Below are positions 1 through 44,833 of a stretch of DNA of 64,000 nt, piece by piece. Position numbers and translations under genes: made by a program. The DNA is from an uncultured Gammaproteobacteria bacterium (GTDB lineage: Bacteria > Pseudomonadota > Gammaproteobacteria > Natronospirales > REEB76), in the NCBI GenBank assembly GCA_964584665.1, contig CAZPAO010000001.1, positions 83,681 through 147,680 on the forward strand, read 5' to 3'. How positions within the stretch are numbered: position 1 is the stretch's first letter; every line of letters starts with the position of its first letter. The notes under the pieces were generated by a model. The model saw only the letters and a list, made by a program, of their open reading frames with translations. It made no database searches and was not told the DNA's origin.

Positions 1-2
1 GC

Positions 3-245
3 GTGATATCCCGCTTCGTGGACTCCTTCCTCATGGTGGTGTCCGCCCATCGCACGCCGCGCCCGATGCTGGAGGAGGCCCTCGACCTCGTCGGCCCGGA
101 CAAGCTGATGGGACTCATCTACAACCGCGGGGAACTGATGCCGCGCAGCTATTATGGCTACTATCGCTACGGCAAGCCGATGTCCGAGCAGATCAAGCGG
201 CGCGAGCCGCGCGTGCAGGTGCAGGGCGTCCCGAGCGATGGCTGA
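3..245 (+). CDS. 3' end of a chain-length-determinant / BY-type tyrosine autokinase (EpsG/Wzc/CpsD-like); the gene starts upstream of the window
   Basis: ORF is open to the window edge. The C-terminal tyrosine cluster SYYGYYRYG is typical of bacterial tyrosine autokinases. Its stop overlaps the next start (ATGGCTGA). Confidence 0.65.
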   Translation: MISRFVDSFLMVVSAHRTPRPMLEEALDLVGPDKLMGLIYNRGELMPRSYYGYYRYGKPMSEQIKRREPRVQVQGVPSDG

Positions 246-6320: not shown

Positions 6321-6379
6321 CGACTTCCACGGCCTGTCCCATACCGGCACGGGCCCCTCAAGACTCCTTCGAGGCATAC

Positions 6380-7756: not shown

Positions 7757-7767
7757 GCGAGGCAGAC

Positions 7768-8304: not shown

Positions 8305-8593
8305 GGTCTACGGACTGTTCGAGCGGGTCCTGAACCAACCGGCCCCGGCGCCGGAGGCTGATCTGTTCGAGAGCGGCACGCTGGATTCGCTCGAGTTCAC
8401 CAACCTGCTGTTGGTGCTGGACCGCGAGTTCGACCTGAAGCTCAGTTTCCAAAACATGAACCTGGAGTGTTTCCGCTCCCTGGGCAGCATCGCCCGCTTC
8501 GTCGCCGGCCACACCGGCCTCGATGCGGCACTGACTGGGCTCAGCGGAGACGATGTGGACCGGCCGCTGCTGGTGCGGTTGGAGAACAGCTGA
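8276..8593 (+). CDS. Acyl/peptidyl carrier protein (DltC/ACP-like)
   Basis: Phosphopantetheine attachment motif GTLDSLEF in a ~100-aa acidic protein. ATG 8276 is preceded by AGGAG. The ORF-track start 8216 overlaps the GNAT gene. Confidence 0.75.
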   Translation: MHVTPALLDRVYGLFERVLNQPAPAPEADLFESGTLDSLEFTNLLLVLDREFDLKLSFQNMNLECFRSLGSIARFVAGHTGLDAALTGLSGDDVDRPLLVRLENS

Positions 8594-9822
8594 TGATGGC
8601 AAGGCGCACGGAGACTGGAATGCAGATCGATACCTATATACCGAACCCCCTCACCTCGCCTCGGCGTCGCGGGCACGGCCATGGCGAGCGTCCCGCGCTC
8701 AAGGTGGAGTGCATCGAGGACACGGACACCCTGACCTTGCTGCGTCCGGAATGGGACGCGCTGCTGAAGGCGAGTGGGGCCGACTGCCTGTTCCTCACCT
8801 GGGAGTGGATGGCCACATGGTGGAAGCACCTTGCCCAGGGCCGCCGCCTCAACGTGCTGGTGGTGCGACGCGGCGATGAGCTCCTGGCCATCGCGCCCCT
8901 GGCCTTGCGCCCGCCGCAGCTCGGGCGTCTGCTGCCGTTCCGGACCCTCGAGTTCCTGGGCATGGGCACGGTGGGCTCCGACTACCTTGACATCATCACC
9001 CGGCCGGACGAGGAGGAACGGACGCTGAAGGCTTTGGCCGAATACCTCCAGCAGAACAAGTTCGTCATCGAGTTCACCCGCGTAAAGCCCGGTTCCCGGC
9101 GCATCGCTGCGCTGGTGTCGCTGCTCGGTCAGGCGGGCTGGCATTCCCATCAAGCCGTCACCGACAACTGCCCCTACATACCCCTCACCGGCCACAGCTG
9201 GGAGTCCTACATGTCAGGGGTGAGTGGGCCGCACCGGCGCAACGTGCGCCGCCGTCTCAAGATCCTCCACGAGAAGTTCGGGCAGGTGGAGTTCCAGCAG
9301 GCACGTACCGAGGAGGAGCGGGAAGCCTGTTTCCAGGCCTTCGTCGAGTTGCATGCCAAACGCTGGTCCGGTGACGAGAGTTCCACCGCGTTCACCGGGC
9401 CGCAAGTGCAGGCTTTCCACGAAGAGTTCAGCCGTCTGGCGCTGGCCCAGGGCTGGTTGCGGCTCTGCGTCCTGAAGCTGGACGGCAAACCCGTCGGCGC
9501 GACCTATTCATTCCGCTACGGCGAAGCCTATTACTATTACCAGGCGGGATATGACCCGGCCTACAACGAATACAGCGTAGGCCTCGTGACGCTCGCGCTC
9601 TTGGTGCAGACCGCGATCGGCGAGGGTGCCTGCGAGTTCGACATGCTGCACGGCTACGAGGAATACAAGTTCCTGTGGACCCGCGCCGGCCGTGACCTCG
9701 CCCGGGTGCGCTGCTTCCCGCCCAATGCCGCTGGCCTCATGTACCGGCAGGCCATGAACCTGCGACAAGGCATCAAACGCGTCGCTACCTGGCGTTGGCG
9801 CCTGCAGGAGTTGAAGGCATGA
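8593..9822 (+). CDS. CelD/BioF2-like (FemAB-related) GNAT acyltransferase
   Basis: N-terminal LRPEWDALL...FLTWEWMATWWKH and C-terminal YYYYQAGYDP...FDMLHGYEEYKFLW are typical of the cellulose-biosynthesis CelD / PEP-CTERM-locus FemAB-like family. TGATG junction with the carrier-protein stop. Confidence 0.7.
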   Translation: MMARRTETGMQIDTYIPNPLTSPRRRGHGHGERPALKVECIEDTDTLTLLRPEWDALLKASGADCLFLTWEWMATWWKHLAQGRRLNVLVVRRGDELLAIAPLALRPPQLGRLLPFRTLEFLGMGTVGSDYLDIITRPDEEERTLKALAEYLQQNKFVIEFTRVKPGSRRIAALVSLLGQAGWHSHQAVTDNCPYIPLTGHSWESYMSGVSGPHRRNVRRRLKILHEKFGQVEFQQARTEEEREACFQAFVELHAKRWSGDESSTAFTGPQVQAFHEEFSRLALAQGWLRLCVLKLDGKPVGATYSFRYGEAYYYYQAGYDPAYNEYSVGLVTLALLVQTAIGEGACEFDMLHGYEEYKFLWTRAGRDLARVRCFPPNAAGLMYRQAMNLRQGIKRVATWRWRLQELKA

Positions 9823-11321
9823 GCGAGGTCCAGGCGCGCGGCTCAGTCTTCAAGCCCGCTTTCATGCTCATGTCGGGTCGGGCATTGGGCTTCATCGCTG
9901 CCTTCGCCATCCCGGTGGTGCTGGTCCGCATCTTCGACCAGACCGAGTTCGGCACTTACAAGCAGCTGTTCCTGATCTACACCACTCTCTACGGCATCGC
10001 CCAGCTCGGCATGGCGGAGAGCCTCTATTACTTCCTGCCCACAGCCCCCGAGGACCGCGGCAGTTACCTGGTGAACTCGGTGGTGGCACTGGGCGCCACA
10101 GGGTTGCTCTGTTTCGCCGTATTGACGGTGAAAGCGGATGCAATCGCCGGCTGGTTCCACAACCCGGCGCTTGCGGCCTACCTGCCGCAGGTGGGCATCT
10201 TCCTCACCCTGATGCTGATGGCGGCGGTGTTCGAGATCGTGATGATCACCCGCAAGCACCATCTGTTCGCCTTCGGCGCCTATGCGGTCTCAGATCTCGT
10301 GCGGGCGAGCCTGTTCGTGCTGCCGGCCTTGCTGTTCCATAGCCTCGCCGCGCTGTTCGCAGGTGCCGTGCTGTTCGCGGCGCTCAGGCTCACGACCGCG
10401 GCGTTCTACATCCGCCGCCAGTTGCCGGCGCGACCGCACCTGGAGCCCGCGCTCCTGAAGCGGCATCTAGCCTATGCCTTGCCGTTCGCCCTGGCCGTGT
10501 CCCTGGAGACCTTGCAGACCAACCTGCACATGTACGTGGTCTCCACCCATTTCGATGCCGCCGTGTTCGCGGTCTATTCCGTGGGTTGCCTGCAGGTGCC
10601 GCTGGTGGACTTCATGATGACATCCACCAGCAGCGTGATGATGGTGCGCATGAGCGAGGACTTGCGGGACGGCCGGCGCGAGGAAGCCCTTGAACTCTGG
10701 CGCGACACCACCCGCAAGCTGACCATGGTCTTCGCCCTGTTGGTAGGCGGCCTGATGGTGACCGCCGACAAGCTCATCGTGCTCCTGTTCACCGCCAACT
10801 ATGCCGGCAGCGTGCCGCTGTTCACCGTCTGGACCATCAGCATGCTGTTCGCGGCCATCATGACTGACAGTGTGTTACGGGTCAGGGCCGACACGCGTTT
10901 CCTCATCCTGCTGAACGTCATCCGCCTATCCGTCGTGGCCTTGAGCATCGGCCTCCTGATGGCGGGGTTCGGCCTGATGGGTGCGGTGCTGGCGACGCTG
11001 CTCTCTACTGTCACCGCCAAGACCGTGGGCATCGTTCGCATACGCAAGCTCATGGACTGCCGTTTCGCCGACATCCTGCCGTGGAAGGCGCTGGCCGAGA
11101 TCGTCCTCATCGCCGCCGTGGCCATGGTCCCGGCCCTCTTGCTGAAGTCGCTGCTGGCGCTGCCTCTGCTGCCGTCGCTGCTGCTTACGGGCATCGTCTA
11201 CGGCCTGGGTTATCTGGGCCTCATGTGGGGTTTCGGCCCGCTGCGCGACGACGAGCGGCGCCTGACCCTGCAATACCTGCAACTGCCTGCCGCATGGGCC
11301 GGCGGAAACCGGCGTGCCTGA
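9819..11321 (+). CDS. Wzx-type oligosaccharide flippase (MOP superfamily polysaccharide biosynthesis protein)
   Basis: About 500 aa and 12 or more hydrophobic helices. ATGA overlap with the upstream stop. Confidence 0.75.
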   Translation: MSEVQARGSVFKPAFMLMSGRALGFIAAFAIPVVLVRIFDQTEFGTYKQLFLIYTTLYGIAQLGMAESLYYFLPTAPEDRGSYLVNSVVALGATGLLCFAVLTVKADAIAGWFHNPALAAYLPQVGIFLTLMLMAAVFEIVMITRKHHLFAFGAYAVSDLVRASLFVLPALLFHSLAALFAGAVLFAALRLTTAAFYIRRQLPARPHLEPALLKRHLAYALPFALAVSLETLQTNLHMYVVSTHFDAAVFAVYSVGCLQVPLVDFMMTSTSSVMMVRMSEDLRDGRREEALELWRDTTRKLTMVFALLVGGLMVTADKLIVLLFTANYAGSVPLFTVWTISMLFAAIMTDSVLRVRADTRFLILLNVIRLSVVALSIGLLMAGFGLMGAVLATLLSTVTAKTVGIVRIRKLMDCRFADILPWKALAEIVLIAAVAMVPALLLKSLLALPLLPSLLLTGIVYGLGYLGLMWGFGPLRDDERRLTLQYLQLPAAWAGGNRRA

Positions 11322-33328: not shown

Positions 33329-36300
33329 CTATTGGGTCTTGATGAGGGCGTCGGTGACGGTGCCGCCCAGGGTGTTCACGCTCGCCGCCGCCCGCAGGAT
33401 GGAGGCCGGCGCGGTCTTGCTGGTGTAGAACACGGTGCCGTTCTTGTAGTAGTTCACCGTGCCCGCACCCACGGCGATGCGGAACACGTCGCCGGAGGCG
33501 AACTTGGTGTCGGTCTTGTAGGCGCCTTTCTCGTGCACCTCCACGCTGCCACTCTGCAGGCGCAGGGCGTAGTCCATGTTGGCCATGCCGGGGCCGGCTG
33601 CCGGGTTCTCCAGGCCCACGCTGCGCAGGGTGTTGGTCTCCGAGACCACGAACTCCACGTAGCCGTTGCCACCCTGGGTCAGCTGCTGCTGGGAGTCAGC
33701 GATGGCATCCTCGCAGCCGTCGCAGCCGCTGGTCTTCTGCAACGAGCCGCCGTCGGCGGTCACATTGCGAAGGGCGGTCCAGGCCACGGGCAGCACCCGC
33801 GGGAAGCTGGCATAGAGCGCCGCCACCTGCGAGGCATTGAGGGCGGAGCTATAGAGCCGCACTTCGTCCACGGAGGCCGCCAGGTAGGGCTGGGTCGCGC
33901 CGGGGTAACGGGCGAAGTACAGCGAGTCGGTGCTGCTCACGGCACCGGCACGGCCGGTCCAGGCACGGCTGGTCTTGAGCACGCCATCCACATAGAGCTT
34001 GCCGCCGCTAGCGTCGACCGTGTAGGTCACCATGTGCCACTGGCCATCGTTGTAACCCGCGGTCTTCAGCGGACAGCCGCTGTCACCAACGTGATCCGCG
34101 CTGTCGCGCACATACCAGGCGCAGAGGCTGCCGTTGCTCAGGAACACCTGGTAGCCCTTGTAGGAACCGGAAGCGTACTTGTTGATGAGCGCGTGGGTGC
34201 CGCTCGTGTCGGTGGTGTTGAACCAGACCGATGCCGTAAGCGGGTAGGCATCCAGCGCCGCGACATGAGGGACGCTCGCATACTGGTCCACACCGTCGAA
34301 GTTGAGGGCATCGCCCACCACACCCTGGACCCAGACCGGGCTCTTGTGGAGGGTGGCGGTATAAGCGTGACCGGAGCTGTCGGCGGCAGTGGTGCCGGTG
34401 CCGGTGCCGGCGTCGAACTGCCAGTTGCCCAGGGGCTTCGGCAACGTGACCGAACCGCCCGCCTGGGTGGTGAAGGTCTGGTCGGACGAGACGGATTGCT
34501 GCCCCGAGGGATTGCTCGAGATCACCTGGTAGTGATACAGGGTGCCGGGTGTGAGCCCCGCCATGGCCACCGAATGTGCCGTCACCATGCCGGTGTTCAG
34601 CGTGGTGGTGCTGCCGTAGCTCTGGCTGGTGCCATAGGCGACCTGGGAGTTGGCGGACTGGTCGGTGTTCCAGCTCACGGTGGCTGAAGCTGAGCCGGTC
34701 ACGCTGGATGCGACGCCTGAGATCACCGGCGGCAACACCGCGACGTAGGTGGTCACGGAGACGGAGGCTGCCGTCGTGGTGTTCCCCGCCGCGTCGCGCG
34801 CGATGGCGCTGAGCACATGCGCGCCGATAACCTGCTTGGAGGTATCCCAGCTGATCGAATAGGGCGCCTGGGTCACTTCCGCGCCCAGGTTCACGCCATC
34901 CAGCTTAAATTGCACGCCTGCCACGCCCACGTTGTCGGCGGCATCGGCGGAGACGGTGACGCTGCCGGTGAGGGCTGCGCCCAAGAAGGGGGCGGTGAGC
35001 GTGACGCTGGGGGGCGTCGTGTCACTGCTGCTGCCGCCACCGGTCAGGAGCTGATAAGGGATCTTCACCATGAAGGCTTCCATACGGGTGCCGCCCATGT
35101 TGCTGACCCAGAAGAAGTACTGGCCGGTGGGGTCGATGTTCCCCTTCGGGTCCTTGCCGTAGTCGGTGCAACTCGGGCAAGTGGCGTTGCCGCCGGTGGC
35201 GTTGAGGTCGGTCATGACCGGAGCCACCACCAGCGCCTGCTGGGAGGCATGGGGGATGGAACTGTCCAGGCTGAAGCAGATGATCTCGTTGGCGCGGGGC
35301 GAGTTGGTGCGGTTGGCGCCGCTGCCGCAGGCGTACTGCTGGCTGATGGGCAGGGTCGGGCTCGCGTTCTCGAAGCTCACATGGGACGGAGAGAAGGCGC
35401 TCCAATCGTTATCATGGTAGGTCAGCCCTCCCGCCAAGGGGCTCGAGCCTAGGTTCCATACCCGCCAGGCATTGGCATAGTTGTTCCAGTTATCCACGGC
35501 CACGTATGTGCCATAGCCCATGTCCGAGTGGCCGCCGGCGCCGTTCTGGTCTGTAAGTACGGTCTGGGTGCCTGTCTGCAGGTCAACGAACAGGTTGTCC
35601 TCGTCGCAGCTGGCGCAGGTGTCGGAGGGTAGTTTCTCCTTGATGAGGAGGTAGCGGCCGCTCTTGTCTATCTGGCACTCGTCGAACTTGCCCTGGGCGG
35701 GATAGTAGTAGAACTGCTTGGTGCTAACCTTGTAGGCCATGCAGCCCAAGGTCGCATAAGTGCCCGCATCTTCCAGGGTGGCGGAATGGACGTCGTCATC
35801 GTTGCTGGAGTTGGTCTGCTTGATGACTGAGTTGGGGTACTGAGTGGTGGAATCGAACACGGTCTCCATGACGTGGGTCAGCACGTCATAGCGCAGGAGC
35901 TTGGAGCCGGACTGCATGTAGATCTTGGTGGGCATGCCGTAACTGAAGTACCAGCCTTCGGCGCTGTTCCAGCTGTAGGGACTGGAACTCGCGAACAGCG
36001 GGCCCACTTCGGTCAGGGCTTCCGTGGTCTTGTCGTAGCTGAACAGGGTCGGGCCCTGACCGCCGCGATTGCGATCGAGCCCGATGAAGATGTACATCGT
36101 GTTGCTGCCGGCGCTGTTGCTCATGTTGCGCCAGTAGCTGTAGATCATGTCCACGCAGTCCTGGCCGCCGCAGTCGGTGGCGGTGGTGATGCGCACGCCG
36201 CGGGTGTTGTACGGCGCCGGGAAGCTGAAGGCGCCCCGGTCCGGCAGGAAGGCGCTGGTCTGCGCCTGGGTCATCAGGGTGCGCGCGGTAGCGGTCTCAT

Positions 36301-36406
36301 CGTTCTCCAGGAAGCCGCCAGGGGCGGTGGAGGCGGCATGAGCTACGCCGGTGAGGGCCAGGGCGAAGAGCGCGAGGAGGGCGGATAAGGGTCGCCGGAT
36401 GGACAT
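33329..36406 (-). CDS. Large secreted multidomain protein: unassigned N-domain (~450 aa, possibly beta-propeller), Ig-like domain, FN3 domain, LamG/concanavalin-like domain and an unassigned C-domain
   Basis: Signal peptide MSIRRPLSALLALFALALTGVAHA. Ig-like: DNVGVAGVQFKLDGVNLG...ARDAAGN. FN3: ATVSWNTDQSANSQVAYG...GTLYHYQV. LamG: ALNFDGVDQYASVPH...DGQWHMVTYTVD...VDEVRLYSSALNASQVAAL. Confidence 0.8.
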   Translation of the reverse strand: MSIRRPLSALLALFALALTGVAHAASTAPGGFLENDETATARTLMTQAQTSAFLPDRGAFSFPAPYNTRGVRITTATDCGGQDCVDMIYSYWRNMSNSAGSNTMYIFIGLDRNRGGQGPTLFSYDKTTEALTEVGPLFASSSPYSWNSAEGWYFSYGMPTKIYMQSGSKLLRYDVLTHVMETVFDSTTQYPNSVIKQTNSSNDDDVHSATLEDAGTYATLGCMAYKVSTKQFYYYPAQGKFDECQIDKSGRYLLIKEKLPSDTCASCDEDNLFVDLQTGTQTVLTDQNGAGGHSDMGYGTYVAVDNWNNYANAWRVWNLGSSPLAGGLTYHDNDWSAFSPSHVSFENASPTLPISQQYACGSGANRTNSPRANEIICFSLDSSIPHASQQALVVAPVMTDLNATGGNATCPSCTDYGKDPKGNIDPTGQYFFWVSNMGGTRMEAFMVKIPYQLLTGGGSSSDTTPPSVTLTAPFLGAALTGSVTVSADAADNVGVAGVQFKLDGVNLGAEVTQAPYSISWDTSKQVIGAHVLSAIARDAAGNTTTAASVSVTTYVAVLPPVISGVASSVTGSASATVSWNTDQSANSQVAYGTSQSYGSTTTLNTGMVTAHSVAMAGLTPGTLYHYQVISSNPSGQQSVSSDQTFTTQAGGSVTLPKPLGNWQFDAGTGTGTTAADSSGHAYTATLHKSPVWVQGVVGDALNFDGVDQYASVPHVAALDAYPLTASVWFNTTDTSGTHALINKYASGSYKGYQVFLSNGSLCAWYVRDSADHVGDSGCPLKTAGYNDGQWHMVTYTVDASGGKLYVDGVLKTSRAWTGRAGAVSSTDSLYFARYPGATQPYLAASVDEVRLYSSALNASQVAALYASFPRVLPVAWTALRNVTADGGSLQKTSGCDGCEDAIADSQQQLTQGGNGYVEFVVSETNTLRSVGLENPAAGPGMANMDYALRLQSGSVEVHEKGAYKTDTKFASGDVFRIAVGAGTVNYYKNGTVFYTSKTAPASILRAAASVNTLGGTVTDALIKTQ

Positions 36407-36491
36407 GCTGCATAACCTCAGTAGTCATATATGTCGGATGCCCTTGCGGGCGGATGCCGACGGCCACTGGTGGTCTGTGAGCAGAGGAGCT

Positions 36492-36503
36492 GGGGTAATA
36501 CCC
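36492..36503. promoter_or_regulatory. Palindrome GGGGTAATACCC (GGGTA-A-TACCC) ~90 nt upstream of the 1,025-aa protein gene; candidate LuxR/NarL-type operator
   Basis: Read directly from the sequence. It belongs to a family of similar palindromes in neighbouring intergenic regions. Confidence 0.3.
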
Positions 36504-36679
36504 TTAAGGTCCCTGCCTTATCGGCAGGAGATATATACCTGCCATGGGTAACAGAGGTTTAAAGATAGAGGAACGCGTGAGTAAACAGCGACAGAAGCGT
36601 GACCTATGTCACATCGGATTGTCGTCGCCTCGCGGTGACAGCGGAAATCAATCAGGGACTGGAGGAAGCGGGGGTCAGG

Positions 36680-37420
36680 TCAGGGCGTGATGAGCTGTCG
36701 GCGGATGGCGTAGCGGATGAGTTCCGCGGCCCTATGTACGTGCAGCTTGTGCATGATGCGGCTGCGATGGGATTCGATGGTCTTGGTGCTGAGGCCCAGC
36801 TCCTGGGCGATCATGCGCGTGGTGTTGCCTTGGGCGATGAGCATGAGCACCTCGCGCTCCCGTTCGCTCAAGGCCTCCGGCTCCGCCTCGCTGCCAGACA
36901 CCAGGGATGAGAGCGCTCCCGAAGAGAGGCGGGTATTGAAGTGGATGATCCCACGGGCGACCTGGCGGATGGTGTTCACGAGTTCTTCGCCGGTCTGGGA
37001 CTTGTGCACATAGCCGTGCATTCCGGCGCGCAGCGCTTCCACGGCGCTGCCATTGTCTTCCTCGTTGGTGAGCAGCACCGTCTGGATCTCCGGCACCGAG
37101 CGCTGCAGCTCGCGGGCCACGGCGATGCCGTCCATCAGGGGCATGTCGTAGTCCAGGATCGCGACATCCGGATGCCGGGTCTCGGCCATCCGCAGGGCCT
37201 CAGGGCCGTCGGTCGCTTCACCGACCACTTCGAAACCCTCATCCTGCAACAGCACTCCCAGGCTCTCGCGGAAGATGGCATGGTCATCCGCCAGCAGGAC
37301 ACGTGTCGGCGTGCCATGGGCGGAGTGATGGATGTCGTTCACCGTCGGCCCTGGGGCTGCATGGTCATGCCTTGATGAAACCGCGGCGTACCGCGTAGCG
37401 CACCAGGCTCGCCGTGTCAT
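36680..37420 (-). CDS. LuxR/NarL-family response regulator (REC plus HTH_LuxR), third regulator of the stressosome locus (RR3)
   Basis: REC: VLLADDHAIFRE...VAILDYDMP. HTH: LSEREREVLMLIAQGNTTRMIAQELGLSTKTIESHRSRIMHKL. The longest ORF (ATG 37420) overlaps the upstream gene by 56 nt. A GTG at 37342 would give 221 aa, so the start is unresolved. Confidence 0.8.
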   Translation of the reverse strand: MTRRAWCATRYAAVSSRHDHAAPGPTVNDIHHSAHGTPTRVLLADDHAIFRESLGVLLQDEGFEVVGEATDGPEALRMAETRHPDVAILDYDMPLMDGIAVARELQRSVPEIQTVLLTNEEDNGSAVEALRAGMHGYVHKSQTGEELVNTIRQVARGIIHFNTRLSSGALSSLVSGSEAEPEALSEREREVLMLIAQGNTTRMIAQELGLSTKTIESHRSRIMHKLHVHRAAELIRYAIRRQLITP

Positions 37421-37994
37421 GGATCTCGAGCTTCTGCATGATGCGGGTGCGGTGTGAATCCGCTGTCTTGGCGCTCAGGCCCAGCACTTGCGCCACTTCT
37501 TTGGTGGTCTTGCCCTCGGCCACGAGCTGCAGCACCTGGCGCTCGCGGTCGGTGAGGGGGTCTGCGGGGAGTTCGGACTTGCCGATGTAGGCATCCACCA
37601 CGGTCTTGGAGATGCCGGGGCTGAGATAGACCGAGCCCCGGCCCACCTCGCGGATGGCGCCGACCAGGTCGGAGGCGGCCTGGGCCTTCAGTACATAGCC
37701 GCGGATGCCCGCGCGCAGGGCTTCCAGCACGTAGGCTTCCTCTTCGTACATGGTGAGGACGATGACCTGGATGCCGGCGGTCTGCTTGAGTATCTGCTTC
37801 GCGGCATCTATGCCGTTCAACAGCGGCATGCCGAGGTCCAGCACCGCGAGTTCCGGTGAGAGCTGGCGGGCGAGGCGCACGGCCTCGTGCCCATCGGCCG
37901 CTTCCGCCACCACGTCGAAACCCTCTCGCTCCAGCAGGGCTTTCAGACCCTGGCGGAACATGGGGTGATCATCAGCGAGCAGGATACGTTTCAT
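37365..37994 (-). CDS. LuxR/NarL-family response regulator, second regulator of the stressosome locus (RR2) and paralog of 38161-38793
   Basis: REC with ADDHPMFRQGL...LAVLDLGMP. HTH: LTDRERQVLQLVAEGKTTKEVAQVLGLSAKTADSHRTRIMQKL. Confidence 0.9.
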   Translation of the reverse strand: MKRILLADDHPMFRQGLKALLEREGFDVVAEAADGHEAVRLARQLSPELAVLDLGMPLLNGIDAAKQILKQTAGIQVIVLTMYEEEAYVLEALRAGIRGYVLKAQAASDLVGAIREVGRGSVYLSPGISKTVVDAYIGKSELPADPLTDRERQVLQLVAEGKTTKEVAQVLGLSAKTADSHRTRIMQKLEIHDTASLVRYAVRRGFIKA

Positions 37995-38099
37995 CCGGGG
38001 GGCACTCGTCCCGCATGCCGCCGTGCGGGAGCACGGGGCAGCGGGGACATATTACCCCCTGACTATGCAGGTGTATTGCCCAAGGCGGAATCGAGGAAA

Positions 38100-38126
38100 T
38101 ACCCCTAATCCGCTGGGTAATCACCC
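38100..38126. promoter_or_regulatory. NarL-type heptamer TACCCCT (38100-38106) plus the imperfect palindrome GGGTAATCACCC (38115-38126), in the spacer between the duplicated regulator genes
   Basis: TACCCCT matches the NarL heptamer consensus TACYYMT as I recall it. A further GGGG-N8-CCCC element containing TTACCCCC lies at 38043-38058. Confidence 0.3.
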
Positions 38127-38160
38127 CAAGGGCGCGACGATGTGACGATAAACCGCGCGA

Positions 38161-38793
38161 TCAGGCCTTGATGAAGCCGCGACGGATGGCATAACGCACC
38201 AGGCTCGCGGTCTCGTGTATCTCGAGCTTCTGCATGATGCGAGTGCGGTGCGAATCGGCGGTCTTGACGCTCAAGCCCAGCACCTCCGCCACCTCCTTGG
38301 TGGTTTTGCCCTCGGCTACCAGCTGCAGCACCTGGCGTTCGCGGCCGGTGAGGGGTTCCGCCGGCAGTTCGGACTTGTTCACGTAGGCATCCACCACGGC
38401 CTTGGAGATGCCGGGGCTGAGATATACGGCTCCGCGCAGCACTTCGCGGATCGCGCCCAGGAGGTCCGCGGCGGCCTGGGCCTTCAGCACGTAGCCGCGG
38501 ATGCCCGCGCGCAACGCTTCAAGCACGTAGGCATCCTCCTCGTACATGGTGAGCAGGACCACCTCGGTATCGGGTGCCTGCTTGTGGATCTCGCGGGCGG
38601 CATCGATGCCGTTCAGCAAGGGCATACCGAGGTCCAGCACCGCCACACGCGGGTTCAGTTGCCGCGCATGCCGCACGGCCTGGTGGCCATCGGCGGCTTC
38701 CGCCACGATCTCGTAGCCCTCGCGCTCCAGCAGGGCTTTCAGGCCCTGGCGGAACATGGGATGGTCATCTGCCAGCATGACTGTCTGCATCAT
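38161..38793 (-). CDS. LuxR/NarL-family response regulator, first regulator of the stressosome locus (RR1), translationally coupled to the kinase
   Basis: Same architecture as 37365-37994 (about 82% aa identity by my manual alignment). The start overlaps the kinase stop by 4 nt. Confidence 0.9.
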   Translation of the reverse strand: MMQTVMLADDHPMFRQGLKALLEREGYEIVAEAADGHQAVRHARQLNPRVAVLDLGMPLLNGIDAAREIHKQAPDTEVVLLTMYEEDAYVLEALRAGIRGYVLKAQAAADLLGAIREVLRGAVYLSPGISKAVVDAYVNKSELPAEPLTGRERQVLQLVAEGKTTKEVAEVLGLSVKTADSHRTRIMQKLEIHETASLVRYAIRRGFIKA

Positions 38794-39722
38794 AGATTGC
38801 TCCCCAGCGGTATGCTGATTCTCAGCTCGGTGCCCGATCCGGGCGTGGAATTGACTTCGAAGGCGCCATAGAGACTGCTGATACGCTCGCGTATGCCCAT
38901 GAGCCCGAGGCCATGGCGCGCGGGAGTACCCGGAGCAGGGGAGGCGAAGCCCCGTCCGTCATCGCGGATCGTGCAGTAGATCAACTGCTGGTCGATCCAG
39001 ATCTTGATCCATACGCACTGCGCCTGGGCGTGGCGCACGATGTTGTTGAGCGCTTCCTGCACGGCCCGGTAGAGCGCGGTCTCCACCTGAGGTGGCAGCC
39101 GGCCATGGTCGAGGATGTCGTTGTCGATGACGATGGTCAGGCCCGCGCGCTTGCGGAAACCGTCCGTGAGGAACTGCAGGGCGGGCATCAGGCCGAGCTG
39201 GTCGAGGATGGGCGGGCGCAGCTCATGGGAGAGGCGCCGCAACTGGTCCGACACCATGTCCAGCTGCTCGGAGATGCGGTCGACATGCTTTCGTACCTCC
39301 GCCGGAGGCGTCTGGCGCTGTATCTCCGCGAGCTCGAGATACACGGAGGCCAACAGCTGCGCCGCCTCGTCGTGCAGGGTATGGGCGATGCGCTTGGCTT
39401 CTTCCTCGAGGATGTTGTTCAGGCGCCGCAAGGCGGCGTTCGACTCGCGGTTCCCGATCTGCATCATCTCGAAAGGGGACATGCTCTCGATGAGGAAATG
39501 ATAGGCGCCATCCAGCTTGCGCGCCTCACCGTCGTGGGTCTCCACCAGCGTTGACACTGCGGAATGATGGATGTTGACGAGGCCCAGCAGCCCGATGCCG
39601 GAGCCGAGCGCCTGGCGACCGAGTTCATAGGCCTGATGCAGCGGCGCTTCGCCGCCGTCTTTCAGGTAGTCCTTCAGGGCCTTGCGGTAGGTCTCGTGGA
39701 GATCGGGGGAGTAGCCGTGCAT
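38790..39722 (-). CDS. Soluble histidine kinase: RsbU_N-like N-terminal domain plus HisKA_3 and HATPase_c
   Basis: No TM segment. The N-terminal ~100 aa (YRKALKDYL...LHQAYELGRQAL...NIHHSAV...FLIESMSPFEM) resemble the RsbU N-terminal (RsbT-docking) domain. H-box HTLHDEAAQLL, N-box QEALNNIVRHA, G-boxes DDGRGF and GLGLMGIRER. Confidence 0.8.
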   Translation of the reverse strand: MHGYSPDLHETYRKALKDYLKDGGEAPLHQAYELGRQALGSGIGLLGLVNIHHSAVSTLVETHDGEARKLDGAYHFLIESMSPFEMMQIGNRESNAALRRLNNILEEEAKRIAHTLHDEAAQLLASVYLELAEIQRQTPPAEVRKHVDRISEQLDMVSDQLRRLSHELRPPILDQLGLMPALQFLTDGFRKRAGLTIVIDNDILDHGRLPPQVETALYRAVQEALNNIVRHAQAQCVWIKIWIDQQLIYCTIRDDGRGFASPAPGTPARHGLGLMGIRERISSLYGAFEVNSTPGSGTELRISIPLGSNL

Positions 39723-39728
39723 GGCGGC

Positions 39729-40340
39729 CTACCCCAGGTAACGCGCGACCAACGCCAGGGCGTCGTCGGTCTTCTTGCAGTAGCGGGAGATGATGCGCTC
39801 AGCGATGTCAGTGACGCTGCCATCGCCGCGGATCTCGTCGGCGAAGTCGGGTGCGATGCCATCGGTGGCGAAGATGATCATGTCGCCGGGCTGCACGCGG
39901 GTCACCGCGGTCTGCAGCGAGGGCAGGCGCTGGCCCACCACGCCGGGGCGCAACAGCAGGTTCTGCTTCACATACCCGGAGCTGGTGGTCTTCAGTAGCA
40001 AGCGGCCCTCCACGTTACCTATGCCGAGCCAGGTCAGGGTGCCTTCATTGGCGTCGAAGCATGCCAGGTTCATGACTGCGCCACGGCTGCCGGTGAGGGC
40101 AGTATGGCAGCGTTTCGCGAGGCTGATGAGGGATTCCTCGCCGGCATGCCGTTCCACGCAGTCCACGGCCCGTTCCGCCGCTGCTGCCGCCTCGCGGCCG
40201 TGGCCCAGGCCGTCGATGACGGCGGCCACCATGCCATTGGGTACGCCCACCATGGCGTGGCGGTCTCCGGACTCAGCCTGGCCCGGCAGCGTGAAGACCG
40301 CTGCGGCCGACTCGATCACATCGCGCATCACTGTAGCCAT
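39729..40340 (-). CDS. rsbX: PP2C-type (SpoIIE-family) phosphatase, RsbX-like
   Basis: 203 aa. ESGDRHAM...AAVIDGLGHGREAA...IFATDGI motifs. Position directly after rsbT. Confidence 0.8.
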   Translation of the reverse strand: MATVMRDVIESAAAVFTLPGQAESGDRHAMVGVPNGMVAAVIDGLGHGREAAAAAERAVDCVERHAGEESLISLAKRCHTALTGSRGAVMNLACFDANEGTLTWLGIGNVEGRLLLKTTSSGYVKQNLLLRPGVVGQRLPSLQTAVTRVQPGDMIIFATDGIAPDFADEIRGDGSVTDIAERIISRYCKKTDDALALVARYLG

Positions 40341-40783
40341 TTCTTGGCCGTGACGGTGGTGCCCTTGTCGGTGCCCGTGTCTATGTAGAATTCATCCACC
40401 ATGCGGCGTACGCCGCATAGGCCGAGGCCCAGGCCGCCGGACGTGGAGTACCCACCCACCAGGGCGCGCTGTACGTCGGGGATGCCGGGGCCGTTGTCCC
40501 GGCTGATGATGATGACGCCGTGCTGGTTCTCGCTGCCGTTCGCCTTGCCGAGCACGATCTCGCCGGTCTGGGCATAGAGCACGATGTTGCGCGCCAGCTC
40601 CGAGATGATGGTGGCGATGAGCGTCGACTCCGTCTCCGAGAAACCGGATTGGAGTGCCAGCTCGCGTCCATGCTGGCGGGCGGTGACGATATCCATCACT
40701 GTCCGGATGGGGATGACTGCCTTGTCGTCCAATTTCCCTTCCGTTGCGCTTCCGCTCTGCGGTGGGTTGACGGGCCTGTTCAT
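40328..40783 (-). CDS. rsbT: Stressosome serine/threonine kinase RsbT (GHKL ATPase)
   Basis: ARQHGRELA...ATIISELARNIVLYA...ISRDNGPGIPD...STSGGLGLGLCGVRRMVDEF. 151 aa. Confidence 0.85.
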   Translation of the reverse strand: MNRPVNPPQSGSATEGKLDDKAVIPIRTVMDIVTARQHGRELALQSGFSETESTLIATIISELARNIVLYAQTGEIVLGKANGSENQHGVIIISRDNGPGIPDVQRALVGGYSTSGGLGLGLCGVRRMVDEFYIDTGTDKGTTVTAKKWLQ

Positions 40784-41166
40784 CTGGATCCCGCTGGCGG
40801 CCCCACGCTCGTACGCTTGGGCCGTGCGTCCAGATAAGCCAGACCTTCTTCCAGGTCGAGGGCAGTGGGCACGCCTTCCAGGCTGAGACCCAGCTGCACC
40901 ATGGAGAACGCCACCTCCGGTTGGATGCCGACGATCACCGTGTCGGCACCGCGCAGGCGGATCATGTGGGCCATGTCCCGCAGCGTTCGCACTGAGAAGG
41001 AATCCATCACGTCCAGGCCCGTCACGTCCAGGATCACGCCGACCGAACGGTAGCGGCCCACCTGGGCCACCAGCCGGTCGCGCAGCGTCACCAGGTCCTG
41101 GTCGGTCAGCACGGCCTGCACCGACGCGATGAGGTAGTTCCTCTGTTTTAGGATAGGGACTTCCAC
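40780..41166 (-). CDS. rsbS: Stressosome STAS-domain protein RsbS
   Basis: Single STAS domain with the phosphorylatable-serine context DVTGLDVMDSFSVRTL. 128 aa. 4-nt overlap with rsbT. Confidence 0.85.
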   Translation of the reverse strand: MEVPILKQRNYLIASVQAVLTDQDLVTLRDRLVAQVGRYRSVGVILDVTGLDVMDSFSVRTLRDMAHMIRLRGADTVIVGIQPEVAFSMVQLGLSLEGVPTALDLEEGLAYLDARPKRTSVGPPAGSR

Positions 41167-41178
41167 GCCGGCGTGTCC

Positions 41179-42105
41179 TTACTCGTTGTTCTTTTCAGTG
41201 ATGGGCATGACCTTGTAACCCAGGAGCTTCTCGGCCTCTTCGATGCCGCCCTGGAGGTCGCCCACCGTGGCCATCTTGCCCAGGTCCACGCCGATGGTGA
41301 CCAGGGTCTGCGCCAGTTCCGGCGCGAGGCCCGTGACGATCACGTCGGCACCGACCAGTCGGGCGGCTTCCACCGTCTGCACCAGGTGGTTGGCGACCGC
41401 GGCGTCCACCGCGGGCACACCGGTCAGGTCCATCACGACCACTCGTGCGCGGTTTACGCGGATGCCGCGCAGCAGCTGTTCCGTCAGCTGACGGGCGCGT
41501 TGCGGGTCGAGGATGCCGATGATGGGCAGGATCAGCAGTCGTTCGCGCACGGCGAGCACTGGGGTGGACAGCTCGCGGATGGCTTCCTGTTGCTGGCGGA
41601 TGATGCGCTCGCGTTCCTGCACGAAGCCCACCGCCACCGTGGTGGCGATGCGGTTCGCGGCGGGCTCATAGGCGTCCAACACGCGGGTCAGCAGTTGCTG
41701 GTTCTGGCCGTATTTGGCGAAGAGGGAGCGTGCCAGCACGTCGCGCAGCAAGAGCACGATACCCACCACTTCGTGCGTCTCGACGCCTCGGGGGATGATT
41801 CGTTCCGACAGGTCGCGGGCGTAGGCTTCGAGGGCTTCGATCGAGCCGGTCTCCAGCGCTCCCAGGTAGTTGTCGTACACCGAGCTTGCTTCCGCCATGA
41901 TCTCTTCGTTGGTCATGGCGGTGAGGAAGCGGGCGCTCATGATCCGGCTGGCCCATACCTCCCGCAGCTGCGTGCGGTTCTGGCGCAAGTGCGCCACCAG
42001 TTCTCGCAGTACCTCGGCGTGGGATTCGTCGTTAGGCGAGCCTACGTTGCCGGACATCTCCGGCTGCAGTGTGCGGTCTCGGCCTTTGCCCTTGTTATCA
42101 GCCAT
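41179..42105 (-). CDS. rsbR: Stressosome sensor RsbR (N-terminal non-heme-globin-like sensor domain plus C-terminal STAS)
   Basis: The C-terminal STAS LILPIIGILDPQRARQL...VVVMDLTGVPAVDAAVANHL...VIVTGLAPELAQTL is preceded by a ~180-aa helical N-domain. First gene of the operon. Confidence 0.85.
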   Translation of the reverse strand: MADNKGKGRDRTLQPEMSGNVGSPNDESHAEVLRELVAHLRQNRTQLREVWASRIMSARFLTAMTNEEIMAEASSVYDNYLGALETGSIEALEAYARDLSERIIPRGVETHEVVGIVLLLRDVLARSLFAKYGQNQQLLTRVLDAYEPAANRIATTVAVGFVQERERIIRQQQEAIRELSTPVLAVRERLLILPIIGILDPQRARQLTEQLLRGIRVNRARVVVMDLTGVPAVDAAVANHLVQTVEAARLVGADVIVTGLAPELAQTLVTIGVDLGKMATVGDLQGGIEEAEKLLGYKVMPITEKNNE

Positions 42106-42487
42106 GATTCGCTCCTCGTCCTTCCCTCTGTCAGCGGGGATTCAGTTGCAAAGCGGCGTCGCCGCCGGGGTTCAGTTCAGGACAGTCTCGCTGCGGTCGA
42201 TCGCGGATCCCTGAATCCGCCTGTAACCTCAAGACAAACGCTCCATCGGCCCTGGGGTGATGTGCGACAGACATGGTACACAAAATGCCGTGCCGGCCGA
42301 CGAGCGCATATGTCAAGAAACAAGTGCAACATATGCCTCGAATTTCAGCCGTGGAATCCCGCGAAAAACCCTTAATCGCTGTGCGACCCGGGTCTCAATA
42401 CATGCTGTCTTTTGATCGTCTTGAGGCGCTCCGCTGCGCCTGTCCCTGGAATAAGTAAACCTTAGCGGGGCAGGGATATGTAGATAT

Positions 42488-42505
42488 ATAGGGTAAATAC
42501 CCTAT
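42488..42505. promoter_or_regulatory. Palindrome ATAGGGTA-AA-TACCCTAT between the OmpR-type regulator stop and the rsbR upstream region
   Basis: An 8-2-8 inverted repeat read from the sequence, of the same GGGTA/TACCC type as the other sites. It could alternatively be a weak terminator hairpin. Confidence 0.3.
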
Positions 42506-42547
42506 TTGGATGATTGGAAAGACCCCATGGTGAAAAACCAAGCACGT

Positions 42548-43291
42548 TCAGCCGCCAGTGAGCCACTCCGGCAGGAGATCGAAGCGGAAACCCACGTTAC
42601 GCACGGTGATGATGTAGCGGCCCGCATCCCCCAGTTTGCGGCGCAGGCGGCCGATATGCACATCCACGGTGCGGGTGTCGAGGCCGTGGATGGTCCCGTG
42701 GGACCAAGCCTCCTGCAGGAGGTAATCGCGCGTGAGCGCACGGCCCTTGGCTTCAAGAAGCGTCTGCAGGAGCCGGAACTCCTTCTTGGTGAGCTCGATG
42801 GGCTGCCCCGAGACCTTCACGGTCCAGCGATCCAGGTCCATGTCGATCGGTCCCGCCCGCAGCCTATGGTTGGGCGTCACGGCCTGCAGGGCTCGGCGGG
42901 CGATGGCCTTGATATGCGCCATCAACACGTCGACGTTCAGCGGCTTACCCACGCAATCGTCCGCACCGGTCTCCAGCGCCTCGATCTTTTCGGCGTTGCC
43001 CTCGCCACCGGTCACCATGATGATGGGGATGCCCGCGGTATTGGGGTCCTCCCGCAGGCGTCGGCAAGCTTCCAGGCCTCCGGCTTCGGGCAAGTCCGCG
43101 TCCAGGATCACGAGATCCGGCTTCTCGGCATGGATGCTGTGCAGCATCTCGCCTTCGTCATGGGCGGAGACGGCGTCGAAATGCAGTTGTTTGAGGGCAG
43201 AATGCTCCACGCTGCCGGACGCTGCGTCATCGGTGGCGATGAGGGCCTTGAACGGTGCGCGCGATGCGGTCGGTGAGATTCTCAGGTCCAC
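42548..43291 (-). CDS. OmpR/PhoB-family response regulator (REC plus winged helix), no adjacent kinase
   Basis: REC: ALIATDD...DLVILDADLP...IIMVTG. Winged-helix domain: ELTKKEFRLLQTLLEAKGRALTRDYLLQEAW...TRTVDVHIGRLRRKL...ITVRNVGFRF. Confidence 0.85.
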   Translation of the reverse strand: MDLRISPTASRAPFKALIATDDAASGSVEHSALKQLHFDAVSAHDEGEMLHSIHAEKPDLVILDADLPEAGGLEACRRLREDPNTAGIPIIMVTGGEGNAEKIEALETGADDCVGKPLNVDVLMAHIKAIARRALQAVTPNHRLRAGPIDMDLDRWTVKVSGQPIELTKKEFRLLQTLLEAKGRALTRDYLLQEAWSHGTIHGLDTRTVDVHIGRLRRKLGDAGRYIITVRNVGFRFDLLPEWLTGG

Positions 43292-43489
43292 TTTTTTTCC
43301 GGGTCCGCCGGGGGTGCCTTGGCGGAGATGCCAGGAAGTTGGACACCGTCCTTGGCGTCCATGGGTCGAGACTAGTTGAGTCGTGCCTGTGCAGGAAGCG
43401 GGTGAACCCCTGATTAACCGGGGTGTAACACCCGAGGCCGGGATTCAGGGCATATGTCTAAACCCGGCACAGCGCCCTAAACCGGGCCG

Positions 43490-43520
43490 CCAAAAAGAAA
43501 CGCCTCTTTCGAGGCGTTTC
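43490..43520 (-). terminator. Terminator-like hairpin inside a divergent intergenic region (a T-run follows only on the minus strand)
   Basis: Stem GAAACGCCTC / GAGGCGTTTC with loop TTTC at 43497-43520, preceded on the plus strand by CAAAAA (a U-run on the minus strand). No annotated minus-strand gene ends here. Confidence 0.45.
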
Positions 43521-43672
43521 AGTCGACGCGGATGATAGGGAGGATCATCCGCATCGCAGGCCGTGACGTTGCATCTCGGCTTGTGCGGCCGATGGGGAAC
43601 ATCGGCCGTTTGGATCGTGAGGGGTGCACGACCCGAGGCAAAGTCTGGACCGGGCAGGACGTTTTTTATATT

Positions 43673-43684
43673 GGGTAAAAACCC
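43673..43684. promoter_or_regulatory. Palindrome GGGTAAAAACCC ~125 nt upstream of the GT9 gene
   Basis: Read from the sequence. It is flanked by further inverted repeats AACCCGA-A-TCGGGTT (43680-43694) and AGGGG-TAGT-CCCCT (43695-43708). Confidence 0.3.
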
Positions 43685-43807
43685 GAATCGGGTTAGGGGT
43701 AGTCCCCTATATGTCGTGGGAGGCGGTCAGGGGGAGGGGGATTCGACCTTTATGTCGTGCTTGGTTAATATCCCGCGGCGCAGCCCGCGTTCCCTGCCGA
43801 TGGCCTC

Positions 43808-44833
43808 ATGCCTGCACCTGCCGCATCCAAGATACTGGTCATCCGCAACGACAAGCTTGGCGATTTCATGCTCGCCTGGCCGGCCCTGGCCCTCTTGCGG
43901 GCTGCCCAGCCTAAGGCCCACATCGCCGTGCTGGTGCCGGCCTATACGGCGCCCCTGGCGGAGGCCTGTCCTTATATAGATGAGGTGATCCTGGACCCGA
44001 GGCAGAAGGGGGAGTGGCGGAACGGCCGGGCCTTAAGCCGGCTCCTCAAGCCCAAGGGCTTCGATGCGGTCATCACGCTCTTCTCGCGCTTCGACACCGG
44101 CCTCGGCGTATGGCTCGCCGGCATCCCGCGCCGCTATGCGCCCGCCACCAAGCTCGCGCAACTCTTCCACAACCGCCGCATCCCCCAGCGGCGTTCCCGC
44201 TCCGAGAAGCCGGAGTACGTGTACAACCAGGATCTGGTGCGCGTGTTCCTGGAAGAGCAGGGCGTGACCAAGCTGAAGCCGACCGAAGCGCCCTATCTCG
44301 AGTTCAAACCGGCCGAGATCAAGAAGCTGAAGCAAGCCTTCCTGAAGGAACACAAGATCGCCGCGACGAAGCAACTGCTGTTCGTGCATGCAGGGCATGG
44401 CGGTTCGGCCAACAACCTCTCACTGGGGCAGTACGGCCATCTCGCGCGCGCGCTGGCCGGCGCCAAGCGCCATCTCGTGCTCACGGCGGGCCCGACCGAG
44501 GAAGCGCAGGCCCGGCGGCTCTCCAGCCTCATCGAGGGTCCGCACACGGTGCTGGTATCGAAAGAGGGGCTGCTGGATTTCGCGCAACACCTGGCCTTCG
44601 CCGATCTTTTCATCAGCGGGTCCACCGGTCCCTTGCATGTGGCGGCGGCGCTGGACCGCCCCACGGCCGCGTTCTATCCGCGCCGCCGTTCCTCCACCGC
44701 CCTGCGCTGGCAGACCGTGAATCACGCGGACCGGCGCCTGGCTTTCATGCCGCCGGAAAGCGCCGATGAGAGCGACATGGGGAGCATCGACCTGGATAAG
44801 GCGGCCGCCGCCATCGTGAAAGGGCTGTTGTGA
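43808..44833 (+). CDS. Glycosyltransferase family 9 (heptosyltransferase-like)
   Basis: ILVIRNDKLGDFMLAWPALALLR N-terminus and C-terminal FISGSTGPLHVAAAL, typical of the RfaF/RfaC family. Confidence 0.8.
   Translation: MPAPAASKILVIRNDKLGDFMLAWPALALLRAAQPKAHIAVLVPAYTAPLAEACPYIDEVILDPRQKGEWRNGRALSRLLKPKGFDAVITLFSRFDTGLGVWLAGIPRRYAPATKLAQLFHNRRIPQRRSRSEKPEYVYNQDLVRVFLEEQGVTKLKPTEAPYLEFKPAEIKKLKQAFLKEHKIAATKQLLFVHAGHGGSANNLSLGQYGHLARALAGAKRHLVLTAGPTEEAQARRLSSLIEGPHTVLVSKEGLLDFAQHLAFADLFISGSTGPLHVAAALDRPTAAFYPRRRSSTALRWQTVNHADRRLAFMPPESADESDMGSIDLDKAAAAIVKGLL

Follow-up and report, generated by a model that had tools for sequence, protein, structure and literature searches.

A stressosome gene cluster with an apparent histidine kinase and response regulator output in an uncultured gammaproteobacterium

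Genes corresponding to a stressosome are found on the minus strand of a 64,000-nucleotide stretch of contig CAZPAO010000001.1 (assembly GCA_964584665.1), which derives from an uncultured Gammaproteobacteria bacterium; this whole stretch is called the window here. The module has eight open reading frames (ORFs), namely rsbR, rsbS, rsbT, rsbX, a gene for a soluble histidine kinase and genes for three response regulators (RR1, RR2 and RR3). Together they form a genuine stress-sensing gene cluster of the stressosome type, whose output appears to consist of a kinase and DNA-binding regulators in place of a sigma factor. A minimal stressosome with a two-component output in place of the sigma-factor cascade is probably the best explanation of the locus overall. 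The kinase begins with an RsbU_N domain, and docking of RsbT on the kinase is the best-supported reading of the sequence and synteny. The architecture is widespread among uncultured bacteria and has already been noted in the literature, and the window is a further member of it.

41179-42105, minus strand: rsbR, stressosome sensor and co-antagonist, 308 amino acids (aa); variable N-terminal extension at residues 1-37, RsbR-type N-domain at 38-160, linker, and STAS domain at 182-300 (Pfam STAS at 182-274, E=2.5e-13)
40780-41166, minus strand: rsbS, antagonist, 128 aa, GTG start; single STAS domain
40328-40783, minus strand: rsbT, switch serine kinase, 151 aa; Pfam HATPase_c and HATPase_c_2
39729-40340 (alternative start 40328), minus strand: rsbX, PP2C feedback phosphatase; Pfam SpoIIE/PP2C_2
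38790-39722, minus strand: kinase, 310 aa; RsbU_N at residues 11-86, helical linker at 87-109, HisKA_3 at 110-172, HATPase_c at 213-306
38161-38793, minus strand: RR1, NarL/LuxR-type regulator; Pfam Response_reg and GerE
37365-37994, minus strand: RR2; Pfam Response_reg and GerE
36680-37342 from a GTG (ORF 36680-37420), minus strand: RR3; Pfam Response_reg and GerE

A sequence-only reading of this DNA had described eight co-directional minus-strand genes at these coordinates, the first six joined by overlaps of 4-13 nucleotides (nt) or gaps of 6-12 nt, and the junctions bear this out. The rsbR and rsbS genes are separated by 12 nt, rsbS and rsbT overlap by 4 nt (ATGA), rsbT and rsbX overlap by 13 nt (1 nt if the alternative rsbX start is used), and 6 nt lie between rsbX and the kinase gene. 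The kinase gene and RR1 also overlap by 4 nt in an ATGA, an arrangement indicative of translational coupling. RR2 follows RR1 after 166 nt, and RR3 follows RR2 after 22 nt if it begins at GTG 37342. This start was adopted because it is the one in the source-contig gene calls (ENA ERZ27245407), and the ATG upstream adds 26 residues that have no support from homologs. A sigma-70 promoter scan of positions 36300-43900 found nothing and a terminator scan gave none after RR3 or RR1, so the transcription units are putative.

The same reading held that the window contains no rsbV, rsbW, sigma-factor or RsbU-type PP2C gene, and no such gene, nor a second PP2C gene, was detected in the 64 kb. This was checked in Pfam-annotated gene calls for positions 9904-64000 and by Pfam scans of ten long ORFs over most of 1-9904, the remaining gap at 7757-8466 being inspected by eye only. 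Six-frame tblastn of the window with its own STAS, RsbT, RsbX and kinase proteins returned the module and no paralogs.

Stressosome proteins

The RsbR, RsbS and RsbX sequences are closest to stressosome proteins of solved structure. RsbR matches Listeria RsbR (9O3Z/7B0U) across residues 38-297 in a phmmer search of the Protein Data Bank (PDB; E=6e-34). Its N-terminus scores 20.8 bits against the Pfam RsbRD_N model, under the cut-off of 24.3, and PF14361 is recorded for many RsbR homologs of 75-96% identity. The best PDB matches of RsbS are B. subtilis RsbS (6JHK, E=5e-24) and Listeria RsbS. Its candidate phospho-serine, S56, lies in an MDSF sequence that aligns with IDSF of B. subtilis (S59) and is kept in all relatives. 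RsbX is most similar to Moorella MtX (3ZT9, E=2.6e-15) and B. subtilis RsbX (3W40, E=7e-12).

RsbT shares 46% identity (E=3e-40) with B. subtilis RsbT, and its homologs carry the JGI name RsbT. Residues R36 and R40 are equivalent to R19 and R23 of the B. subtilis protein, and the ATP-binding motifs are kept. A search of PDB sequences with RsbT returned no RsbT entry, the best match being SpoIIAB, and no RsbT-specific model matched the protein in an NCBIfam scan. That scan assigned no equivalog to any protein of the module.

The canonical phospho-threonine positions of RsbR (T171/T205 in B. subtilis and T175/T209 in Listeria) are occupied by P201 and A235. Because both threonines are replaced, RsbR is probably not phosphorylated. 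Among 121 sequences (120 homologs and the window), the first position is Pro in 114 and Ser in a minority, and the second is most commonly Ala (81 of 121), with Ser in 16. The phospho-threonines are a trait of Bacillus-type RsbR and not of the stressosome module as such. A haem-globin nature of the RsbR N-domain is disfavoured, as the candidate His is Phe in one related locus (L010).

RsbR is 76% identical to the copies in a Dormibacteraeota and a Nitrospiraceae cassette. The corresponding values are 68-73% for RsbS, 52-53% for RsbT, 44-50% for RsbX, 41-48% for the kinase and 54-65% for the regulator. A search with RsbR returned more than 8000 relatives, of which the best 120 (P0246-P0365; 75-96% identity) span at least six named lineages, with matches in Gammaproteobacteria, Xanthomonadaceae, Pseudohongiellaceae, Betaproteobacteria, Gemmatimonadales, Nitrospiraceae, Terriglobia and Dormibacteraeota. 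Conservation of RsbR far above that of the kinase and RsbX of the same cassettes could reflect strong constraint or horizontal spread. This unusual cross-phylum conservation points to a common signal. Given the identity of ~76% across Gammaproteobacteria, Nitrospiraceae and Dormibacteraeota and the missing phospho-threonines, RsbR may read one universal cue.

The RsbU_N kinase and related loci

The first ~100 residues of the kinase had been read as resembling the N-terminal domain of RsbU, and a profile search had been named as the test of this resemblance. The Pfam RsbU_N model (PF08673) matches residues 11-86 significantly (E=8.7e-14; 51.9 bits against a cut-off of 25.5). A profile built from 20 kinase N-termini and compared with all PDB sequences has significant matches only to the N-domains of B. 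subtilis RsbU (2J70, 2J6Z, 1W53 and 2J6Y), with E-values from 6e-7 for the best to 1e-5. This N-terminal profile was needed, as single-sequence phmmer with the kinase detected only the DesK/VraS core in the PDB, leaving RsbU undetected. Foldseek with the full kinase model likewise returned kinase cores only (DesK/VraS-like) and no RsbU.

The catalytic motifs of the kinase are all intact: in the H, N, G1 and G2 boxes, H117, N227, D254/G256/G258 and G271/G273 are present and are invariant in 30 homologs. The linker at residues 87-109 is nearly invariant in the same homologs. In an AlphaFold2 model (pLDDT 83) the N-terminal helices span residues 6-22, 25-40, 45-59 and 66 onward, the last of which is predicted to run unbroken from helix 4 of the N-domain through the linker into the dimerization and phosphotransfer (DHp) helix that bears His117 (residues 66-136), in line with the linker mechanism put forward in PMC12143880. 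Pfam detects no other input domain in the kinase. In B. subtilis, binding between RsbT and RsbU involves RsbU residues E24, Y28, I74 and I78 and RsbT residues R19, R23 and N24 (PMC12143880). Only part of these residues is kept: the invariant E25 of the kinase aligns with RsbU E24, and I78 aligns with RsbU I74, but others are changed, as listed further on. From the domain architecture and the synteny described below, it is reasonably likely that RsbT acts on the kinase through RsbU_N.

A profile of the kinase N-domain and linker matched 1352 clusters (50% identity) at E<=1e-10. RsbU_N is present in all of the best 149 of these clusters, together with HisKA_3 in 57, HisKA in 25, PP2C in 4 and GGDEF in 1. 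In this best-scoring part, histidine kinases are therefore the usual partner of RsbU_N.

The context of 17 related loci, from at least three phyla, was recovered. Protein look-up gave six gammaproteobacterial loci with a module from rsbR to the regulators: five are complete (L006, L007, L009, L010 and L012), and L004 breaks off at rsbT. Metagenomes gave seven (L015-L020 and L024), one Dormibacteraeota and one Nitrospiraceae metagenome-assembled genome (MAG) gave one each, and the other two are the minimal loci described below. A scan of genome contigs with a single protein gave only one true relative. The N-domain was found in only 12 of 80 metagenome loci because the patterns used in that scan correspond to the kinase core. 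All of the nearest relatives of the window are MAGs labelled Gammaproteobacteria, and one RsbT homolog is from a Steroidobacteraceae MAG.

In all 17 loci, rsbT lies upstream of an RsbU_N kinase gene, either directly or with only rsbX between them. In each of the related loci, the kinase gene is in turn followed by one NarL-type regulator gene. A survey of synteny had been proposed as a check, and it came out positive, as did the other sequence-level predictions of the earlier reading. The complete cassette of rsbR, rsbS, rsbT, rsbX, kinase and regulator recurs in MAGs of Gammaproteobacteria, Nitrospiraceae and Dormibacteraeota.

Two loci, L008 (7534-9571) and L011 (1721-4036, a Terriglobia MAG), are minimal arrangements of rsbT, RsbU_N kinase and regulator beside glycosyltransferase genes. 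No rsbR, rsbS or rsbX gene was seen in the flanks examined, which cover 7-8 kb in L008 and 1.7 kb upstream in L011. In two other loci an extra rsbS-like single-STAS gene lies between RR1 and RR2 (L009, 9724-10146, with MDSF kept; L010, 9764-10171, with LDAF). No remnant of this gene was found in the window by tblastn, and only the 166-nt spacer is present there. GGDEF genes adjoin the cassette in L012 (4440-5360) and L095 (11135-11989), which hints at a link to cyclic di-GMP (c-di-GMP) in some lineages; no GGDEF gene was seen in the window.

The sequence-only reading allowed that two-component outputs of RsbRST modules had been noted, and regarded the output of one kinase and three LuxR-type regulators beside a secreted protein and an EPS locus as uncharacterised. 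The design is less novel than this implies: RsbU_N kinases in stressosome operons had been noted twice, and full-text literature searches found no paper testing such a kinase or tying a stressosome to NarL-type regulators or exopolysaccharide (EPS). In alpha-, beta- and gamma-Proteobacteria, rsbRSTX genes are followed by genes for signalling proteins, some with RsbU_N, and the presence of this domain in downstream proteins was taken as strong evidence for RsbT input (Heinz et al. 2022, PMC9237108). RsbU_N histidine kinases encoded in operons with rsbT have also been described, with a shared linker mechanism proposed and an AlphaFold2 dimer presented for a gammaproteobacterial 'NreB', MBI3545564.1 (Baral et al. 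2025, PMC12143880). The kinases of both papers agree with that of the window in domain order, in lying downstream of rsbRSTX and in having a helix that joins RsbU_N to the kinase core. These papers mention the architecture in passing, without experiments, and neither describes three NarL-type regulators with an OmpR-type regulator, an operator-like palindrome, a probably non-phosphorylatable RsbR or a link to polysaccharide genes.

Better-studied systems share parts of this design. RsbR, RsbS with a phospho-serine, RsbT, RsbX and RsbU_N are common to the window and to B. subtilis and Listeria. However, in those organisms RsbU_N is attached to a PP2C phosphatase, whereas in the window it is attached to a HisKA_3 kinase. 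Also unlike them, the window lacks RsbV, RsbW and a sigma factor, has rsbX directly after rsbT, and has P201 and A235 in RsbR. In Moorella thermoacetica, MtR-MtS-MtT-MtX controls an RsbU_N-GAF-GGDEF cyclase, MtG, according to Quin et al. 2012 as summarized in PMC12143880 and PMC4976288. As in the window, RsbU_N there belongs to a non-phosphatase effector, and MtX is the protein that best matches window RsbX in the PDB. The Moorella output is c-di-GMP synthesis, whereas that of the window would be a phosphorelay to transcription factors. Like the window, Vibrio vulnificus and V. brasiliensis are Gram-negative examples of rsbRSTX followed by two-component genes with no sigma factor (PMC9237108). 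Their RsbR is a haem globin-coupled sensor with Ser/Thr at both phosphosites, whereas the candidate His of window RsbR is not invariant. The kinase core and regulators belong to the HisKA_3/NarL class of DesK-DesR and NarX-NarL, but the window kinase is soluble, its sole input is a protein-docking module, and one kinase gene is accompanied by three or four regulator genes.

Response regulators, operator-like sites and neighbouring genes

RR1, RR2 and RR3 all keep the D-D-D-T-K residues of the receiver domain and the GerE/LuxR helix-turn-helix; in RR1 these receiver residues are D9, D10, D54, T82 and K104. None of the three is given a named ortholog, because none reaches an NCBIfam equivalog cut-off. 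RR1 is likely to be the cognate regulator of the kinase. Alignment and tree show that RR2 is a paralog of RR1; the two share 83% identity and have the same alpha-1 helix sequence. The divergent RR3 is 46-47% identical to both, differs at several alpha-1 positions, and represents a separate, older orthologous lineage present in the window, L004, L006, L007 and L009. Phosphotransfer from the kinase to RR1 is predicted from the ATGA coupling of their genes, and to RR2 from the identical alpha-1 helix. The RR2 ORF that starts at 37994 (209 aa) keeps the acidic pocket and agrees with RR1 and all orthologs. The source-contig call begins RR2 11 codons late (37961-37994; 198 aa), which would delete the Asp-Asp pocket.

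The kinase had been proposed to feed up to three NarL-type regulators. Three are indeed present, but the basic cassette has one: most of the more distant cassettes encode a single regulator, and three occur only in the clade of the window. The earlier inventory also overlooked a conserved regulator of OmpR type directly upstream of rsbR. This gene is present in 7 of 7 loci that reach that far, including the window; it lies upstream in L006, L007, L009, L010 and L012, and in divergent orientation in L011. It is a possible fourth regulator of the module. Features around the module are as follows.

42548-43291, minus strand: OmpR/PhoB-type orphan response regulator; Pfam Response_reg and Trans_reg_C
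42489-42504, no strand assigned: perfect 7-2-7 palindrome TAGGGTATTTACCCTA, ~385 nt upstream of rsbR; candidate operator
38093-38126, minus strand: tandem operator-like sites upstream of RR2, GGGTGATTACCC at 38115-38126 and degenerate TAGGGGTATTTCCTC at 38093-38107
43671-43709, minus strand: two palindromes, TAGGGGACTACCCCTA and TTCGGGTTTTTACCCAA, then TATAAAAAA, upstream of the OmpR-type regulator gene
43488-43660, minus strand: candidate small RNA or structured leader, ~170 nt, ending in an intrinsic terminator
36492-36505, minus strand: related palindrome with spacing one base shorter, AAGGGTATTACCCC, upstream of the secreted-protein gene
36598-36613, minus strand: CRP-like site TGTGACATAGGTCACG, upstream of the secreted-protein gene
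33329-36406, minus strand: secreted protein, 1025 aa, with signal peptide, Big_7, fn3-like and Laminin_G_3 (Pfam); candidate target
1-33250, plus strand: exopolysaccharide locus, 33 kb, a genuine EPS cluster

When six orthologous regions upstream of rsbR, otherwise 41% identical, are aligned, 9 of the 13 invariant columns fall within the palindrome TAGGGTATTTACCCTA. It is the sole exact match in the window, and scans with a position weight matrix (PWM) agree. The tandem sites upstream of RR2 form the conserved block of the RR1-RR2 spacer in the window, L004 and L006. PWM matches occur in L006 and L009 at the place equivalent to 43671-43709, and GGGT-N4-ACCC sites are also present in spacers of L004, L006 and L009. 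The core motif occurs five times in the window, compared with 1.09 expected; 0 of 100 shuffled sequences reach five, and three of the five lie in spacers of the module. Palindromic operators suit dimers of the NarL family. The protein that would bind the palindrome is nevertheless ambiguous, because the motif is confined to the clade in which the OmpR-type regulator is also present.

Sites like AAGGGTATTACCCC are found at the same place ahead of the secreted-protein gene in L004 and L006. The TGTGA and TCAC half-sites of the CRP-like site are invariant in four orthologous spacers.

The candidate small RNA sits between the OmpR-type regulator gene and the palindromes with their TATAAAAAA box. 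It is predicted to fold (minimum free energy -84.1 kcal/mol, z=-7.9) into four hairpins, the last of which is a strong intrinsic terminator. Three C-rich loops (CACCCCU, UUCCCCA and CCUCCCUA) have an anti-Shine-Dalgarno-like appearance. The element is 84% identical in L006, with three compensatory pairs, and its flanks do not align. It corresponds to no Rfam family, and no further copies were found in 1.6 Mb of related loci.

A neighbouring secreted protein and a 33-kb EPS locus had been reported beside the module, and both are real. No domain was assigned to the N-terminal ~440 aa of the secreted protein, and its PDB matches are to the lectin-like part only. An ortholog comes after the regulator genes in L004, L006 and L009, and genes for related proteins lie beside L010 and L012. 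Polysaccharide genes adjoin most loci with Pfam-annotated calls, including the minimal loci. This conserved synteny and the variant operator-like motif suggest that the module may control the secreted protein and the polysaccharide genes.

Within the polysaccharide locus, several genes show a resemblance, below the curated cut-offs, to XrtA/PEP-CTERM-associated families, namely TIGR03108 amidotransferase, TIGR03097 ligase, TIGR03098 acyl-CoA ligase and TIGR03013 transferase. No exosortase gene was seen in the locus. The label of exosortase locus was not adopted, as only the priming transferase passes a cut-off, and this for a generic EPS model. A CofD/YvcK-family gene (1395-2447, plus strand; PF01933, E=1.4e-92) lies between the genes for the priming sugar transferase and UDP-glucose dehydrogenase.

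Proposed circuit, alternatives and implications

From the domains, motifs, gene order, conservation and operator-like motif we infer a circuit in which each protein-protein, phosphotransfer and DNA-binding step is a prediction. At rest, RsbT would be held on a complex of the RsbR and RsbS STAS domains. When a cue is read by the N-domain of RsbR, RsbT would phosphorylate Ser56 of RsbS and leave the complex, and RsbX would reset the system. Once free, RsbT would dock on RsbU_N, a dimeric four-helix domain, and on the conserved helix next to it in the kinase. Since that helix runs straight into the helix of His117, docking would change the activity of the kinase, and by analogy with RsbT and RsbU the most likely effect is activation. 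The kinase would then phosphorylate RR1, very probably RR2 and possibly RR3, and the regulators would probably bind the GGGT-N4-ACCC palindrome. The presence of this site upstream of rsbR, RR2, the OmpR-type regulator and, with spacing one base shorter, the secreted lectin-like protein suggests that the circuit is autoregulated and probably controls cell-surface or matrix functions. The step from RsbT to the kinase is more certain than the sign of regulation, the extension of the signal to RR2 and RR3, or the targets.

Several observations weigh against this circuit or parts of it. RsbU residues Y28 and I78 correspond to H29 and S82 in the kinase, and N24 and D92 of B. subtilis RsbT correspond to E41 and G. 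With several contact residues changed, the interface between RsbT and the kinase, if present, must have diverged. In Vibrio vulnificus, RsbT did not bind the downstream two-component protein, which lacks RsbU_N (PMC9237108). A 166-nt spacer with operator-like sites of its own precedes RR2 and RR3, which could answer to other kinases. The palindrome is absent from more distant cassettes and was found only in the clade with the OmpR-type regulator, so it is not shared by all versions of the cassette. Spacing differs at the site ahead of the secreted-protein gene, which is not clearly conserved in L009. Finally, the window covers 64 kb of a contig that is at least 209 kb long and belongs to an uncultured MAG.

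The wiring could be the same with the opposite sign, so that docking of RsbT turns the kinase off or shifts it to a phosphatase mode and stress lowers regulator phosphorylation. The DesK-like HisKA_3 kinases, the closest solved relatives, are bifunctional and are controlled through the helix that enters the DHp domain. The sequence does not fix the sign, and linker mechanisms differ between effector families (PMC12143880). We consider this version unlikely, however, since the characterised RsbT partners with RsbU_N, the RsbU phosphatase and the Moorella cyclase (the latter as described in PMC12143880), are activated.

It is also conceivable that RsbU_N serves the kinase as a dimerization module only, in which case an independent two-component system is merely co-transcribed and RsbT has another target. 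Distant RsbU_N-like kinases without rsbT nearby (L026, L056, L068, L088 and L091) and the changes at key B. subtilis contact residues would fit this idea. But the kinase would then be left without an input domain, rsbT stays beside it even where rsbR, rsbS and rsbX are missing (L008 and L011), and the kinase, which otherwise evolves fast, is most conserved in its N-domain and linker. Pure dimerization therefore seems rather improbable.

A partner-switching sigma module encoded at another place in the genome could be the physiologically dominant output, with the local two-component system in a secondary role, and the rest of the contig and of the MAG leaves space for such a module. None was found in the window, however, or beside those related loci whose gene calls carry Pfam annotation. 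The cassette keeps its kinase and regulator as it travels between phyla, and the full sigB-type operon is seemingly restricted to Bacillales (PMC9237108), so this arrangement is very unlikely.

Least probable, with only a slight chance of being correct, is an enzymatic role in which RsbT phosphorylates the kinase or a regulator on Ser/Thr instead of docking stoichiometrically, for which it retains ATP-binding motifs. In B. subtilis, RsbT kinase activity is reportedly dispensable for activation of RsbU (Kang 1998, as cited in PMC4976288). Phosphorylation by RsbT was proposed for downstream kinases in Vibrio (PMC9237108), and the Moorella cyclase is described in PMC4976288 as phosphorylated by an RsbT homologue, but the Vibrio proteins concerned lack the RsbU_N domain that the window kinase has.

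Docking of RsbT on the kinase through RsbU_N thus remains the preferred reading. A broader proposal, which we offer tentatively and regard as doubtful in its entirety, is that the cassette is a horizontally spread, cross-phylum stress sensor. In the clade of the window it would have expanded into an autoregulated circuit of one kinase and many regulators, with a palindromic operator and an anti-Shine-Dalgarno small RNA of its own, gating a lectin-like protein and exopolysaccharide.

The cues and outputs of stressosomes outside Firmicutes are long-standing questions. The cassette offers a simple read-out, consisting of a kinase, a DNA-binding regulator and an operator-like site, that could be rebuilt in a heterologous host. 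If RsbT switches a histidine kinase through RsbU_N, the system would provide a direct test of the "exchangeable toolkit" idea (PMC12143880), and it would connect stress sensing in soil bacteria with genes for surface polysaccharide and matrix.

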